A stretch of 64,000 nucleotides of DNA. It comes from an uncultured Candidatus Saccharibacteria bacterium (GTDB lineage Bacteria; Patescibacteriota; Minisyncoccia; Phycocordibacterales; JACOZG01). Position numbers and translations under genes: made by a program. The stretch spans positions 480,632 to 544,631 of the forward strand of contig CAZYLF010000001.1 of assembly GCA_964648765.1 (NCBI GenBank), given 5' to 3'. The notes under the pieces were generated by a model, which was given only the letters and a program-made list of their open reading frames with translations, made no database searches and was not told the origin of the DNA. Numbering within the stretch: the first letter of the stretch is position 1; the number at the start of each line of letters is the position of its first letter. Below, one piece after another: positions 50,054 through 60,812 of the stretch.

Positions 50054-50086
50054 AAATTAGCGTTGATTATAGCAGGAATATGGTAT

Positions 50087-50110
50087 CTTGACAAATGTAA
50101 AGGTATATAA
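50087..50110 (+). promoter_or_regulatory. TTGACAAAT motif copy upstream of TATAAT (spacing atypical, 12 nt)
   Basis: TCTTGACAAATGTAAAGGTATATAAT. The motif is conserved, but the -35/-10 spacing does not fit canonical sigma70. Confidence 0.35.
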
Positions 50111-50173
50111 TAGGGTAATTATCAGCTGGGTTGAGTCCCCCGGGTATTGGTGTCACTTACTGAAAGGCGAGAA

Positions 50174-50395
50174 ATGAGGAGTGTTAAGGTAATTCACACG
50201 CAGGAATCTGAAAATTATGCGAAACTTCATCAGTCCAAAATTGACGAAGAAGTCGCGAAGATGGCGAAATGTGGAGCAATTGTGATAGGTGCTAGCACGG
50301 CCTTTGGCACATACAGTCGTGAATATTTAACAATAGCCACGACCATCGTATTTGAGGAGTCAAAAAAGCTGGACAGTGTATTTGAGGAGTGCTAG
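50174..50395 (+). CDS. Hypothetical small protein (73 aa)
   Basis: GAAAGGCGAGAA RBS, own terminator; the track ORF extends to 50147. Confidence 0.35.
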   Translation: MRSVKVIHTQESENYAKLHQSKIDEEVAKMAKCGAIVIGASTAFGTYSREYLTIATTIVFEESKKLDSVFEEC

Positions 50396-50426
50396 CAAGA
50401 ACTGACTTTGGTAAATTTTCTCAAGT

Positions 50427-50462
50427 GTCCTGTTGGGCTCATAGCTCACAGGACATTTTTTA
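50427..50462 (+). terminator. Rho-independent terminator
   Basis: GTCCTGT...ACAGGAC stem followed by TTTTTT. Confidence 0.65.
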
Positions 50463-50463
50463 T

Positions 50464-56137: not shown

Positions 56138-57349
56138 CTAGGATTTTTGTGCATTAGCGCTATCCACTCTTAGCTCTAAATCGTGCGCAGCGTTCATGTA
56201 TGCAATATAAGCGTCGTATGGAGATTGATAAGGATTAAAGTAAGCATGCACGTCGCCATCAGCAAACCACTTTGTGCACATGTAGTAAAAGTGGTCAGAA
56301 GTTTGAAGACGACGCCAAGATTCTTGAAGACTTTTACTTTTAACATTTGCCATCCGAGGCTCAAGGGCATAGATACGATCAAGAGCCGAGCGTTGCATCT
56401 CATTTCCTGTCCAAGCGGAGAGATCGCGCTCGGTGTCGGCCCAAGTGAGGATGTGCGGCACATCGAGATCGTCAGACACCGGGAACTTCCTTACTGCTTC
56501 ATCCACAGTGACAAAGTTATTGTCGGGGTGTTTAAGAATCTCGCCCGGCAAATGACGTAAGAATTCAAAGATGCCCGTGTCAGCCCATTGATGCTCACCA
56601 AAAGTCTCGTAATCCATAAAAAGATTAACGAGGTGTCCATTGCCGTTGATGGCGTTTACCCACTGGGCAAATTTAGGAGCATTGAGTGGGTACTCCTTCC
56701 ACGACTTCTCGCCGAAGCGGAAGGCCATGTCGTCAGATAAGCGGTAATTTTTTAAAAGTAATTTAATCTTCTTGGCACCCTTCGGTCGGTATAAAAAGTT
56801 GGGGCTCCGCCAGCCAAGATAATGATCCCAACCTTCGGTTACAACACCCTCATAACCCTTTTTATCGGCCCAGACGCCTACGTCGTTACGATATGAGAGC
56901 TCAGTATTGCGGAAAACTTTAGGTTTAATTCCAAATAATTTTTTAATTTTAGCTTCGTGGAGTTTAACTTGCCGCTCAAACTCTTGTGGTGAATAGAAAA
57001 AGGCTAAGGAATGATAGTAAGTCTCGCCAAGCACACTCACCCGCCCCGTCTCCACTAACTTTTGGAAGACTTCAATAACTTCTGGCGCATTTTCCTCAAG
57101 TTGCTCGAGAGCCAGGCCAGAGAAAGAAAAACTTATTTTAAATTCTGGATGTTTTTTTAATAATTCTAAAAAGGTTAGGCTGGCCGGTAAATATGACTTC
57201 TCCGCGACTTTCCGCAAAATCCGCGCGTTGTTTAAATTAGTTTCCGAATCGTCATTAAAATATTCACTATCACGTCCAACGTCAAAAATTCGATACTTCT
57301 TAACCCGAAGTGGTTGATGAACCTGAAAATATAAACAGACCGCTGGCAT
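56138..57349 (-). CDS. GH57-family alpha-glucan-active enzyme (alpha-amylase/4-alpha-glucanotransferase/branching-type)
   Basis: N-terminal CLYFQVHQP and central MDYETFGEH (catalytic Glu region) are hallmark GH57 segments. Confidence 0.75.
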   Translation of the reverse strand: MPAVCLYFQVHQPLRVKKYRIFDVGRDSEYFNDDSETNLNNARILRKVAEKSYLPASLTFLELLKKHPEFKISFSFSGLALEQLEENAPEVIEVFQKLVETGRVSVLGETYYHSLAFFYSPQEFERQVKLHEAKIKKLFGIKPKVFRNTELSYRNDVGVWADKKGYEGVVTEGWDHYLGWRSPNFLYRPKGAKKIKLLLKNYRLSDDMAFRFGEKSWKEYPLNAPKFAQWVNAINGNGHLVNLFMDYETFGEHQWADTGIFEFLRHLPGEILKHPDNNFVTVDEAVRKFPVSDDLDVPHILTWADTERDLSAWTGNEMQRSALDRIYALEPRMANVKSKSLQESWRRLQTSDHFYYMCTKWFADGDVHAYFNPYQSPYDAYIAYMNAAHDLELRVDSANAQKS

Positions 57350-57364
57350 GCCAATAGTTTAACA

Positions 57365-57405
57365 TAAAAAAACCGGCAACGACTCACATAGTGAATCGCT
57401 GCCGG
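57365..57405. repeat. Direct repeat copy 1 (A-tract + CCGGCAACGA...TCGCTGCCGG hairpin)
   Basis: AAAAAACCGGCAACGACTCACATAGTGAATCGCTGCCGG; near-identical copy at 59430..59468. Confidence 0.7.
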
Positions 57406-57467
57406 CCGAGGCTGGTGGGCAAATTCGCGCTCCAGCTTGCAAGGTAAACTTAAAAGATCAAATGGTT

Positions 57468-57512
57468 GGCCAGCGCAGGAAACGTCTCCTTGGAAACACT
57501 CCTGCGCTGGCC
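57468..57512. repeat. Perfect 13-bp inverted repeat with 19-nt spacer
   Basis: GGCCAGCGCAGGA-N19-TCCTGCGCTGGCC; no flanking T-run, so it is not a canonical terminator. Confidence 0.6.
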
Positions 57513-57681
57513 CCGCTGCCGAGTAGCTGATATGGATTTTTGCACATCTGAGTTTCGATGTCAATTTTTCTTACCCACACTTTTTAGGTTTTTAATTTCA
57601 CCCTTTTTGCTTATAAACCTAAAATCTGGTAGTTTAACGATAGTTTGGTCCTAGAAATTGCTCATGTTTGAGAGGGTGAAA

Positions 57682-57834
57682 ATGACTCAACAAATGTGGA
57701 CTCTAATCACGATATGTGCCGTATTGCTTTTGTTTTGTCTCAAACGATGGCTTGGTAACAATCCCAAATTCATGAAATGGCTTGAAGATGAGTATGATGA
57801 AAATGGTCCAGAAAATCGAAAGGAGAAAAAATGA
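57682..57834 (+). CDS. Small membrane protein (50 aa), translationally coupled (ATGA overlap) to the next gene
   Basis: GAGAGGGTGAAA RBS; hydrophobic LITICAVLLLFCL; below the 60-aa track cutoff. Confidence 0.3.
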   Translation: MTQQMWTLITICAVLLLFCLKRWLGNNPKFMKWLEDEYDENGPENRKEKK

Positions 57835-58094
57835 AGACGACAGAGATGCCTAGCGGTTCGAGTTGTCCGCATTGTAGTGGCCCAGTCTTAGCCGATATTG
57901 TGGCTGAGGAAGTGACACCGGCAGGGACAGCGGAAAAAGAAAAGATCACAAAGGTTTCTGCAACGTATCGATGCGCCAATGAGAACTGTGCGACGAGTTT
58001 CGCACACCCTCCCGGTCAACCAGATTGGTTACCGAATTTGAAGGATTCAATTATAAAAGAATTTGCCGGTAAGGTGACCGACAAAATGAAATAA
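57831..58094 (+). CDS. Small zinc-ribbon protein (87 aa)
   Basis: CPHCSG ... CANENC (CxxC-N41-CxxxC). Confidence 0.45.
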   Translation: MKTTEMPSGSSCPHCSGPVLADIVAEEVTPAGTAEKEKITKVSATYRCANENCATSFAHPPGQPDWLPNLKDSIIKEFAGKVTDKMK

Positions 58095-58106
58095 GTACGA
58101 CCCCTA

Positions 58107-58134
58107 CCCGCGCTACACCAGCGCGGGTTTTTTG
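58107..58134 (+). terminator. Rho-independent terminator
   Basis: CCCGCGCT...AGCGCGGG stem followed by TTTTTT. Confidence 0.7.
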
Positions 58135-58232
58135 TATCTTAAAATTGACTGGCACTTATATAAATGGTAGTTATTTAAGTGGAATTAGTAAGAAACCAAT
58201 GTGGTTTCTTTGACATAGTTTTTGGGTAGAAA

Positions 58233-58934
58233 GTGAGGAATAGTATGTTACCAAGTAGCGCAAAAACCTCTTTGGAACTCCGCACAGAGGCGGCAACACT
58301 TCGTTTTTTGGGTAACCAAATAAGAGAGGGTACCCCCATTTGCGAAGCAATCACAGAAACAGTAAAAAACTTCCCTGATTTTTCGGAAGCTCTCCAGACC
58401 GCCCTTCATCAAATCCGGGAGGGAGACTCATTCCATACTGGCTTGATTGGTTATGAATGGTGCTTCCAAGATTTTGTCCCCGGTATGATCGGAATTGGGG
58501 AAGAAACAGGTCTACTGGACGTGACGTTACTCCAAGCGGCTAATTTAGTCGATCAAATGGCCACCGTGGTTGAGGGCGGAAAGAAGTCCAGTCGAGATCA
58601 GATTGCAGCCATGATTGACTTTTGGATGCTCGCGGAACTCATGAGCGCCGGTTTACCCCTTGTGCGCTGTTTCGAAATTTTGGAACAGACGTCAAGAAGT
58701 CGCTCAAAGAGTTATTGGGGTGTTTTGAGTGGTATGATTGCGCACCAGAGCCTGAGTATAGTAATGGGTTGGCATGCTGAGCACTATCTCCTATTCAACA
58801 CAAACGATGTGAGTAAAATGTTTCAAGTTGAAACCAAGTATATGGCTGATCATGAGGCCCGACGCAAAGATGAGCTACGACCGCAAGTGATCCGAGATAT
58901 TTACGAACGACATTATAAGGAGATCTTCGGTTAG
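58233..58934 (+). CDS. Truncated PilC/GspF-like protein (single T2SSF domain, no TM platform)
   Basis: FPDFSEALQ...FVPGMIGIGEETGLLDVTLLQAANLVDQ matches the F-P-x-(L/M)-x3-(M/I)-x3-GE-x-(S/T)G-x-LD core of T2SSF domains. Second-repeat start AELMSAGLPLVRCFEILEQ. Only 233 aa. Confidence 0.45.
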   Translation: MRNSMLPSSAKTSLELRTEAATLRFLGNQIREGTPICEAITETVKNFPDFSEALQTALHQIREGDSFHTGLIGYEWCFQDFVPGMIGIGEETGLLDVTLLQAANLVDQMATVVEGGKKSSRDQIAAMIDFWMLAELMSAGLPLVRCFEILEQTSRSRSKSYWGVLSGMIAHQSLSIVMGWHAEHYLLFNTNDVSKMFQVETKYMADHEARRKDELRPQVIRDIYERHYKEIFG

Positions 58935-59063
58935 TAATAACCGACCAGCTCAGAATTTAGAACCGCTTTGGCAAACACCAAAGCGGTCTTTTTTTGTTCA
59001 TGTAAATATGCTAAAGTGCATTTGGAAATTGGTCTCGAAACGCTCTCTTGAAAGGAGGGGTAT

Positions 59064-59333
59064 ATGTGCCAACATCAGGCCAATGGAGAAAGAAGCTTCT
59101 GGATCTTGTTGTGGGTAGTTACTATGTTTACGTCCGCAATTCCCTTTGCTAGGGGCGAGCGTGGAATACTCGACAAGGTTGGACTAGGAATCGGTATTCT
59201 CATGGCAGTCATTCTAATTCTGGGTTTTGCTTTTGAATTTTATTGTCACAGGCATCCAGAATTTGTAGAACAAATGGAAAATGAATTTCAAAATGAGGAA
59301 GAAGAGCGGCGAAAAAAACTAGAGACCAAATGA
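59064..59333 (+). CDS. Small 2-TM membrane protein (89 aa) with charged C-terminus
   Basis: GAAAGGAGGGG RBS; two hydrophobic helices; terminator follows. Confidence 0.4.
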   Translation: MCQHQANGERSFWILLWVVTMFTSAIPFARGERGILDKVGLGIGILMAVILILGFAFEFYCHRHPEFVEQMENEFQNEEEERRKKLETK

Positions 59334-59354
59334 AGAAGTAGTGTCCCTACACAC

Positions 59355-59385
59355 AACCCGTCATTAATTTGGCGGGTTTTTTTAT
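59355..59385 (+). terminator. Rho-independent terminator
   Basis: ACCCG...CGGGT stem followed by TTTTTTT. Confidence 0.5.
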
Positions 59386-59429
59386 TTAACATTCTTTTCA
59401 CGACCGTTAAAACATTACACACTTTACAT

Positions 59430-59468
59430 AAAAAAACGGCAACGAGTCACATAGTGAATCATTGCCGG
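59430..59468. repeat. Direct repeat copy 2; also acts as minus-strand terminator of the glycogen-synthase-like gene
   Basis: AAAAAAACGGCAACGAGTCACATAGTGAATCATTGCCGG. On the minus strand this is a hairpin followed by a T-run, 3' of ORF 59610..60812. Confidence 0.7.
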
Positions 59469-59609
59469 TTATAAATAAAGTTGAGGGGGAAGCAGTGGCA
59501 ATAAGCCTCACTAGGCACCAGATAAAGGCCCTAATCTCCCGCAATCCCCCCCTATCACATCTGAATCTAATATATTATAAAAAAATATTTTTGCAATATT
59601 TTAATAGCT

Positions 59610-60812
59610 TTATCTCGTCACCTGCTGATAAATCCCTAAACACTTCTTGGCCGATTCAAGCCAGGTGGTGCGGCGAGCTTCGGCTTCGCCGTGGAGAGCC
59701 AAAGTGCGCTGAAGTGGCGCGTGATTAATAACGCTTAAAATTTTATCGGTCATATCATCAATATCCCAAAAGTCTGCCTTAAGCGCATGTTTGAGCACCT
59801 CGGCCACGCCAGATTGGTTAGAAACTAAAACCGGCGTGCCATTCACCAACGACTCAAGCGGCGTAAGTCCAAACGGTTCGGAGATGGAAGGGAGCACATA
59901 AAGATCAGCCGAAGCATAAAGATCATTTAACTCTTGCCCGCGCAAGAAGCCACAGAAGATCACGCGGTCAGAAATGCCAAGCCGCGCGGCGTCATCAATG
60001 GTTTGCCTTTCCATATCGCCTGAACCGGCGACAATAAAATATACTTTCGGATTAAATTCTAAAACTCTTTTCGCCACTTTTATAAAATAATCGGGACCTT
60101 TTTGGAGGGTAAGACGACCAACAAACAGTACGATTTTATAACCCGCCTCTTTTAATTCTTTCAATCTCACATTTTGTCCGCGATATTCATCAGAGTCGAT
60201 CCCGTTGTGGACTACTTCAATTTTATGTTCCGGAATGCCGTAATGCTTCATCACGATATTTTTGGTCCAACGACTTATAGCAATCACCTTATCAGCCAGA
60301 GTCATCCCAGCCTTCTCAATTTCATAAACTTGCTGGTTTACTCCACTGCCACCCGTGCGATCAAACTCCGTGGCGTGAACATGCACCACTAACGGTTTAC
60401 CACTCAATTTCTTCGCCATCATACCGGCCGGGTACGCCAACCAATCGTGCGCGTGGATCACATCAAACTTTTGATTTTTAATTACTGCGCGCGCCCGCTC
60501 ACCATAAAGCCGCACCTCATCGATTAAATTGCGACCATAAATACTTGGTCCACTACCTCTGATCTCCCCGTACTTTTCTGAAGTAATGTAGGGGTAAACT
60601 AAAGTGTCGACTGTTTGGAGCGAGAACTTCTGAATATCAGCGAAGATCATTTTCATAAAGTCGGCACTCACATCCACTCTTTTTGGGAGCACGAAGATCA
60701 CCTCGGTGGGTAAGGTGCACATGGCTTTAGTTAAGCCAAAGCAAGCTGTGCCTAATCCCCCACTATTATGAGGGGGGAACTCCCAGCCAAACATTAGAAC
60801 CTTTAAATTCAT
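59610..60812 (-). CDS. Archaeal-type glycogen/starch synthase-like glycosyltransferase (GT-B, GT4/GT5-like)
   Basis: N-terminus KVLMFGWEFPPHNSGGLGTA resembles archaeal GlgA; C-terminal E-x7-E GT-B motif (EPFGLTPLESL); sits beside GH57/GH15 genes. Confidence 0.6.
   Translation of the reverse strand: MNLKVLMFGWEFPPHNSGGLGTACFGLTKAMCTLPTEVIFVLPKRVDVSADFMKMIFADIQKFSLQTVDTLVYPYITSEKYGEIRGSGPSIYGRNLIDEVRLYGERARAVIKNQKFDVIHAHDWLAYPAGMMAKKLSGKPLVVHVHATEFDRTGGSGVNQQVYEIEKAGMTLADKVIAISRWTKNIVMKHYGIPEHKIEVVHNGIDSDEYRGQNVRLKELKEAGYKIVLFVGRLTLQKGPDYFIKVAKRVLEFNPKVYFIVAGSGDMERQTIDDAARLGISDRVIFCGFLRGQELNDLYASADLYVLPSISEPFGLTPLESLVNGTPVLVSNQSGVAEVLKHALKADFWDIDDMTDKILSVINHAPLQRTLALHGEAEARRTTWLESAKKCLGIYQQVTR

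Follow-up and report, generated by a model that had tools for sequence, protein, structure and literature searches.

We analysed a 64,000-nt stretch of the genome of an uncultured Candidatus Saccharibacteria bacterium (contig CAZYLF010000001.1; hereafter the window), in which a block of ~2.26 kb separates two genes of glucan metabolism within a minus-strand operon. On one side of the block lies a GT4/GT5 glycogen-synthase-like gene (glgA-like; 59610..60812, minus strand) and on the other a GH57 glycoside hydrolase gene (56138..57349, minus strand), which heads the downstream part of the split operon (GH57, a 119-aa protein, GH15, TGT and beyond). The two genes are spaced 2,260 nt apart in the window, and DNA comparison with a relative in which the site is empty (L090) delimits the insert to 57350-59612, where it takes the place of the 1-10-nt glgA-GH57 spacer of relatives together with the last few glgA codons. 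Within the insert are two same-orientation copies of a ~47-nt repeat, and between these copies lie four plus-strand open reading frames (ORFs) arranged in three units, each with its own Shine-Dalgarno (SD) sequence and terminator. The ORFs were found as described in an earlier reading of this DNA made from the letters alone (the sequence-only reading), which had placed plus-strand genes between the copies, opposite to both neighbours. The same reading had suspected a shift in GC content, and none was found: values range over 0.40-0.49 within the insert and 0.41-0.50 in the flanks, and the GC skew alone flips, because the gene strand flips. The sequence is identical across independent assemblies from two other sequencing runs, and is thus no assembly artefact. 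The block is a small, real and well-delimited lineage-specific accessory islet, without a recombinase of its own, at exactly the junction of the tightly linked glgA-like and GH57 genes.

Empty versions of the site were recovered at two evolutionary distances. Among 80 loci encoding GH57 relatives in species-representative genomes of Patescibacteria, DPANN archaea and Planctomycetota, the glgA-like gene lies directly upstream of GH57 and on the same strand in 75, with a median gap of 27 nt (below 150 nt in 67 of the 75), and no homologue of the islet cargo was found in any of the 80. Closer relatives, retrieved through a protein database search, have a gap of 7 nt where GH57 is 97% identical (L090-L093; 10 contigs) and of 10 nt (L094-L098; 13 contigs) or 1 nt (L102) where it is 86% identical, with a gene order that is otherwise the same as in the window. 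Homology between the DNA of the window and that of L090 ends exactly at the GH57 ATG (57349) and ~10 nt short of the glgA stop (~59620); these breakpoints, together with the short gaps of the relatives, indicate that ~2,260 nt (57350-59612) replace a handful of bases. The earlier proposal of an insertion between two formerly adjacent glucan genes is therefore borne out by syntenic empty sites. Between L090 and the 86% outgroup L094 the junctions are homologous, with the glgA C-terminus (NQVIRV and stop) and a TATAAT sequence in common, so that the L090 junction represents the ancestral state rather than a deletion scar. As a separate observation, the order glgA-like gene, GH57, small DUF5752-like protein and GH15 is kept across Patescibacteria, DPANN archaea and some metagenome-assembled genomes of Planctomycetota (L003-L082), which suggests that these genes may form a widely shared or transferred glucan cassette.

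The content of the site also varies among related species. Occupied variants were found in relatives with ~80-87% DNA identity to the window in GH57 (L085, L099 and L100/L101). L085, in which the GH57 N-terminus and the glgA C-terminus are respectively 91% and 97% identical to the window at the amino acid level, has an insert holding one gene related to the largest gene of the islet (the T2SSF-like gene described below), very divergent at 38% amino acid identity, and a single GH57-proximal copy of the repeat. L099 (GH57 97% identical in amino acids) shares with the window the left copy as well as the promoter-like site and the structured leader ahead of it, and the start of a homologue of the gene for a protein with two transmembrane (TM) segments lies immediately beyond this RNA module. 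L100 and L101 (GH57 92% identical in amino acids) carry only a 305-nt non-coding insert, which ends in a terminator that is placed alike but differs in the sequence of its stem, followed by the same ATGTTAAACT. Cargo units are present or absent independently of each other in these sister species. The position of the left, GH57-proximal copy is a constant feature of all occupied variants (L085, L099 and the L100 type) and hence marks the constant boundary of the inserted DNA, and the right copy is specific to the window among the variants compared.

The direct repeats noted earlier around the block comprise 39 nt at 57367-57405 and 59430-59468 that are 90% identical in the same orientation; allowing one 1-nt indel, they extend to 57359-57405 and 59423-59468, a unit of ~47 nt. 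The copies are spaced 2063-2064 nt apart and differ at four positions in addition to the indel, most differences preserving the pairing of a stem. A search for further copies, as had been suggested, was run over the 64-kb window with a degenerate pattern and returned only the two flanking copies at three or fewer mismatches (0 in 100 shuffles). The hairpin pattern of the repeat had no match in IMG/VR and JGI metagenomes, and a scan of metagenomes with a junction pattern matched L100's own contig only. On the minus strand, both copies have a hairpin of 15-17 bp with the loop TAT (UAU), after which comes T7 (U7). Both hairpins form in RNA folds, the left copy was scored as a terminator by the scanner, and each has the GC-rich hairpin and U-run of an intrinsic terminator as predicted from sequence, with 17 pairs on the left and 13 on the right. 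The left copy (57359..57405, minus strand; 15-17-bp stem, loop TAT, T7) continues into ATGTTAAAC and occupies the same place in L085 and L099, its T-run ending 17 nt ahead of the GH57 ATG at 57349. The right copy (59423..59468, minus strand; 13 pairs plus one mismatch, T7) continues into ATGTAAAG, lies ~140 nt beyond the glgA-like stop at 59610 and is missing from L085 and from the empty sites.

These comparisons change how the repeat is to be understood. The sequence-only reading had taken the right copy for the natural terminator of the glgA-like gene and the pair for a target duplication, and had proposed a comparison with an empty site bearing one copy. In the relatives the two genes are indeed adjacent, but the 47-nt unit has no copy in the empty sites, nor is there room for one; it follows that the repeat came as part of the insert, and not by target duplication of a terminator native to glgA. 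L085 holds a single copy on the GH57 side, and it is the GH57-proximal copy, instead of the right one, that is constant among occupied variants. In addition, the left copy differs from its L085 and L099 orthologues at two to four positions, approximately as much as the two window copies differ from each other; since copies within the window diverge about as far as orthologous copies between species, the repeat is no fresh scar. It is better explained as a duplicated terminator-plus-promoter punctuation than as a target duplication.

The largest cargo gene (58245..58934, plus strand; own terminator at 58962-58987) encodes a soluble T2SSF-like protein of 229 aa. A length of 233 aa had been given previously, but the ATG at 58245 is the more likely start because the GTG at 58233 lies inside the SD sequence and gene callers chose 229 aa. 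The Pfam search that had been proposed for 58233..58934 matched T2SSF at E = 3e-12 (47 bits against a cutoff of 25.2). The protein had been described as a truncated PilC/GspF-like protein with one T2SSF domain and no membrane platform; the absence of TM segments held, whereas the single domain became two by both profile and fold, and the profile, the fold and the permuted order of the domains mark a complete two-domain member of a soluble family in place of a truncated PilC. An AlphaFold (AF2) model built with a 21-sequence alignment has twelve helices in two bundles (pLDDT 93.7, pTM 0.89; pLDDT 51 on the single sequence), for which the best Foldseek matches in the PDB were the PilC model 3JC8 and the cytoplasmic domains of OutF, EpsF and PilC (probability 1.00, TM-score 0.7-0.83 over solved domains). 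Profile comparison with the PDB gave PilC at E = 7e-37, repeat 1 aligning with PilC residues 285-376 and repeat 2 with residues 82-173. When 111 full-length PilC proteins were compared, repeat 1 scored 80 bits with the C-terminal and 49 bits with the N-terminal domain, and repeat 2 scored 84 bits with the N-terminal and 39 bits with the C-terminal domain, the domain order being reversed in all 111 comparisons. The maximum Kyte-Doolittle hydropathy over 19 residues (KD19) is 1.43 in the window protein, with no 19-residue window above 1.6, as against 2.86 in a full PilC.

A word-indexed search returned no close relative of this protein. An exhaustive HMMER scan of 1.8 billion representatives revealed a sparse family of homologues of 205-266 aa, with some members of ~320-340 aa that hold three repeats (P0009, P0013 and P0015); the best match, 42% identical, came from Hainich groundwater, and none of the family members has a convincing TM segment. 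Membrane-less members with two or three bundles occur in groundwater Patescibacteria-like contigs. In the five homologue contexts the genes are solitary among housekeeping genes (ClpP, SmpB, CysS), and neither these contexts nor the window ORFs sampled include neighbouring pilB, pilT, pilM-Q or gsp genes. The gene might have come from a pilC paralogue within the window, but none was found there; a literature search on T2SSF with Patescibacteria returned nothing. As modelled, the T2SSF-like protein is a complete, folded, membrane-less and permuted copy of the cytoplasmic face of PilC, and soluble permuted PilC-like proteins are an undescribed, uncharacterised family.

Upstream of the gene lie a putative promoter (TTGACT-17-(TGG)TAGTTA) and a palindrome or hairpin in the 5′ untranslated region (58191-58209), both read from sequence and together spanning 58145..58209 on the plus strand. 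The segment AAATGGTAGTTAT, a hairpin with a 7-bp stem of changed bases and the segment TTTGACAT recur upstream of the L085 T2SSF-like gene (window 58145-58219; L085 640-710), and as the stem bases have changed on both sides, the hairpin is a possible operator or 5′ untranslated region element.

The remaining cargo genes are small. A 50-aa single-TM peptide without a family match (57682..57834, plus strand) overlaps the next gene by ATGA, consistent with translational coupling; this next gene (57831..58094, plus strand; terminator at 58106-58128) encodes an 87-aa zinc-ribbon-like protein (CPHC ... CANENC; CxxC...CxxxxC). The pairing of a small membrane peptide with a zinc-ribbon protein thus agrees with what had been read from the ORFs, as does the presence of a 2-TM protein of 89 aa (59064..59333, plus strand), which has a strong SD sequence and its own terminator at 59355-59378 and whose ortholog start (MCQHQ...) stands beside the RNA module of L099. 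For the small proteins, searches of PHROGs and NCBIfam yielded nothing better than sub-threshold matches; the sub-threshold matches of the 87-aa protein were to Ogr_Delta (E = 0.034) and to a DNA-binding family of PHROGs (E = 0.0014, the best PHROGs value). Paralogy of the 50-aa and 89-aa membrane proteins was suspected from their similar tails and set aside as not significant (E = 0.12). A 44-aa ORF with a GTG start (59288-59422, minus strand) starts directly beyond the right repeat, runs in antisense over the 3′ end of the 2-TM gene and is probably spurious.

On the minus strand, a promoter-like site and a stretch of predicted RNA structure lie ahead of each repeat copy. On the left, the segment 57406..57564 (minus strand) holds the promoter-like site TTGACA-17-tgcAAAAAT at 57564..57536, the highest-ranking sigma-70-like site in a scan of 5 kb, and a ~160-nt structured RNA (fold z = -6.25) that would end at the left terminator. 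The RNA comprises a hairpin at 57468-57512 and a second hairpin with the loop GCGAAUUUG, and is homologous in L099 (85%) and in L100, where fold z-scores against shuffles are -5.4 and -7.1 (the latter for the RNA-only insert). The motif CCUUGCARG and the loop GCGAAUUUG are conserved and single-stranded on stems of differing sequence. We regard this module as a candidate new structured RNA of ~160-260 nt (window 57367-57564, minus strand; L099 205-395; L100 336-630), which in L100/L101 is the sole insert between glgA and GH57. Rfam 15 gave no family for the structured regions when the whole window was searched at the gathering score, and permissive searches gave nothing relevant at E <= 10 for the window region or at E <= 1 for L085, L099 and L100; the three distinct sequences available are too few for an analysis of covariation. 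On the right, a 140-nt structured stretch (59469..59609, minus strand; z = -4.16) with a G-run/C-run helix lies between the glgA stop and the right terminator and includes a promoter-like site at 59596..59569. It has no homology to L085 or L090, and the left and right modules share no similarity outside the 47-nt unit. The right-hand region (59423-59609) may represent either another small RNA or a glgA 3′ untranslated region with structure.

The distance between the left copy and GH57 is short, and the sequence that follows the terminator may itself have a role. An extended -10-like element, TGTTAAACT (57356..57364, minus strand), lies 6 nt upstream of the GH57 ATG and is proposed to be a leaderless promoter. 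The arrangement TGnTAAACT-N6-ATG is kept in all occupied variants (window, L085, L099 and L100), a spacing that suits a transcript beginning at the ATG itself. At the empty sites a perfect TATAAT stands 6 nt (L090) or 9 nt (L094) ahead of the GH57 ATG, where it overlaps the glgA stop and no SD sequence is present. Because the element is kept 6 nt from the ATG in the occupied variants, we read the repeat unit as a terminator joined to a putative leaderless promoter, which would insulate GH57 from the insert and restart the operon. A survey of the 45 nt upstream of GH57 in L003-L082 noted a TATAAT-like hexamer 5-10 nt before the start and no SD sequence in many Paceibacteria-like relatives, and GGAG-type SD sequences in Saccharimonadia relatives, a pattern that suggests leaderless GH57 expression in part of the phylum.

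A working model for the locus can be put together from these elements. The right copy would end transcripts from glgA ahead of the convergent cargo genes, which they would otherwise enter in antisense, and the left copy would terminate the small structured RNA made from the minus-strand promoter of the islet, along with any read-through. The tail of the left copy, TGTTAAACT, would then re-initiate the GH57 operon as a leaderless mRNA, such that the split host operon would keep working by means of this restart. For the T2SSF-like protein, the most likely activity would be binding of a PilB/PilT-type ATPase normally engaged by PilC, in which case it might act as a soluble regulator or decoy.

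The route by which the islet arrived was approached from its mobility functions and from its flanks. Pfam, PHROGs and NCBIfam identified no transposase, integrase or recombinase domain in the cargo ORFs; there are no terminal inverted repeats, the sole long inverted repeats being the hairpins of the repeat itself; and the empty sites have no integrase attachment (att) core. No tRNA or tmRNA gene was found near the site, and hence there is no tRNA-type att site. Phage and plasmid searches by DNA and protein returned nothing, as did a BFVD fold search, and PADLOC matched no cargo gene to anti-phage defence. Judged by GH57, L090, which is empty, and L099, which is occupied, are equally close to the window, yet the occupied lineages share three derived glgA C-terminal residues that are lacking in L090 and the outgroup; this conflict between the shared glgA residues and the order of GH57 similarity hints at an exchange of alleles through the flanks. 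The islet was probably gained and lost by recombination in its flanks rather than by transposition, and the same recombination within conserved flanking sequence would have remodelled its content.

Taken together, we favour with moderate confidence a joint reading of the locus as an accessory islet with a duplicated punctuation repeat, moved by flank recombination and carrying a soluble, permuted PilC-like protein. Several points weigh against this reading. A sliding-identity analysis gave no clear signal of a recombination breakpoint, which leaves the flank-recombination route as a suggestion, and the reading does not explain where the right copy came from. Consensus matches and thermodynamic folds (z -4 to -7) are the basis of the putative leaderless promoter and the candidate small RNA, and the terminator, being strong and only 17 nt away from the ATG, could instead simply silence GH57, or could serve as a regulated attenuator fed by the promoter at 57564. 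Finally, no type IV pilus genes were found near the islet, and binding of PilB or PilT by the cargo protein is put forward as a hypothesis.

Four other accounts were weighed against accessory gain with duplicated punctuation. The best of them, although we think it unlikely, is that the repeat is the scar of a second step, in which a ~2.06-kb segment integrated just downstream of the terminator of an RNA-only, L100-like site by a Campbell-type or replicative event and duplicated the 47-nt unit. The cargo does lie strictly between copies 2063-2064 nt apart, an RNA-only occupied state exists in a relative, recombining the copies would leave glgA, the 140-nt RNA, the terminator and GH57 in an L100-like layout, and the right module has the G-run/C-run closing helix of L100. 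However, in L085, where a T2SSF-like gene occupies the site, there is only one copy of the repeat, and the hairpins homologous to L100 (hp1 and hp2) are in the left module, inside the supposed insert. The copies moreover differ at 4 positions plus an indel, as orthologues do between species, no integrase or transposase was found in the cargo, and 47 bp far exceeds the target duplications made by transposases. More doubtful again is that the entire small-RNA module was once duplicated in tandem, the repeat being what is left of this, a terminator shared by two paralogous small-RNA genes and kept alike by selection or gene conversion, with the coding units inserted between them later. In favour of this account, a promoter-like site and 130-160 nt of significantly structured sequence precede both copies on the minus strand, and the differences between the copies mostly keep pairing (G·U to A-U, C-G to U·G), but the modules are dissimilar beyond the 47 nt, no Rfam family matches them and three sequences give no covariation support.

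The two accounts that remain are both very improbable. A classical mobile-element insertion with the repeat as a target-site duplication of the native glgA terminator was suggested by direct repeats bracketing opposite-strand cargo between two conserved genes, and conflicts with three groups of close relatives whose 1-10-nt empty spacers hold no repeat copy and with the lack of a transposase, an integrase, terminal inverted repeats and a GC shift. The view that relatives have lost an ancestral block, or that the block is an assembly chimera, draws on the equal closeness of L090 and L099 by GH57 but is contradicted by the homology of the L090 junction to the 86% outgroup L094, by the gaps below 150 nt in 67 of 75 distant relatives across phyla and, for the chimera, by the identical independent assemblies.

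Viewed as an accessory islet, the locus and its relatives provide a natural series from an empty site through an RNA-only insert and a single gene to three units, and this series shows a streamlined genome gaining lineage-specific genes inside an operon without mobile-element machinery. It also indicates how inserted DNA could keep an interrupted operon running, with a terminator and, after it, a leaderless promoter. In Patescibacteria, type IV pili have a central part in the episymbiotic lifestyle and in DNA uptake, and a soluble platform mimic would therefore be a simple and testable regulator. A bolder proposal, which we advance only tentatively and consider unlikely as it stands, is that permuted PilC proteins are a new class of soluble platform mimics that dock into hexamers of PilB/PilT-type ATPases and thereby modulate or prevent the extension of type IV pili, making the islet an exchangeable pilus-control cassette with operon-repair punctuation and a new structured RNA; if true, such mimics would have effects on DNA uptake, on attachment to the host or on the entry of pilus-dependent phages in these ultrasmall episymbionts. 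Elsewhere in the window, the uvrB-uvrA spacer (50054-50463) measures 410 nt as against 161 nt in L090 and contains an 82-aa orphan ORF on the opposite strand (50147-50395) without a Pfam match, which looks like another small lineage-specific insertion in the same style.

Variable islets of orphan genes are common, and among known systems it is the integrase-less islets between core genes, exchanged through flanking homology, that share with the present one a fixed location, alternating content including an empty allele, and no mobility genes. The islet described here differs in being very small (0.3-2.3 kb), in lying inside an operon junction and not between operons, in bringing its own terminator-plus-promoter punctuation and structured RNA, and in the weak evidence here for recombination through the flanks. 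Transposons and insertion sequences with target-site duplications, and integrase islands with attL/attR, likewise have same-orientation repeats that bracket foreign genes, but here the repeat is missing from the empty site, is 47 nt long and is itself a terminator, and there is no transposase, integrase or terminal inverted repeat. In the PilC/GspF/TadBC platform (T2SSF, PF00482; 2WHN, 3C1Q, 2VMA, 5NBG, 3JC8), the cytoplasmic domains are six-helix bundles of the type that both halves of the 229-aa protein form in the model. The cargo protein nevertheless lacks the three inner-membrane TM helices of the platform, is half the length of PilC (~400 aa) and reverses the order of PilC/GspF (cyto1, TMs, cyto2) to a cyto2-like followed by a cyto1-like bundle, and its gene is monocistronic and not beside pilB, pilT or pilM-Q. 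Pilus-motor inhibitors encoded by phages, for example Tip and Aqs1 of Pseudomonas phages, bind PilB, and to these the likeness is by analogy only, as a small soluble accessory protein that might act on a type IV pilus ATPase; the cargo protein has no sequence or fold relation to Tip or Aqs1 and no phage context, and its mechanism would instead be mimicry of the PilC face.

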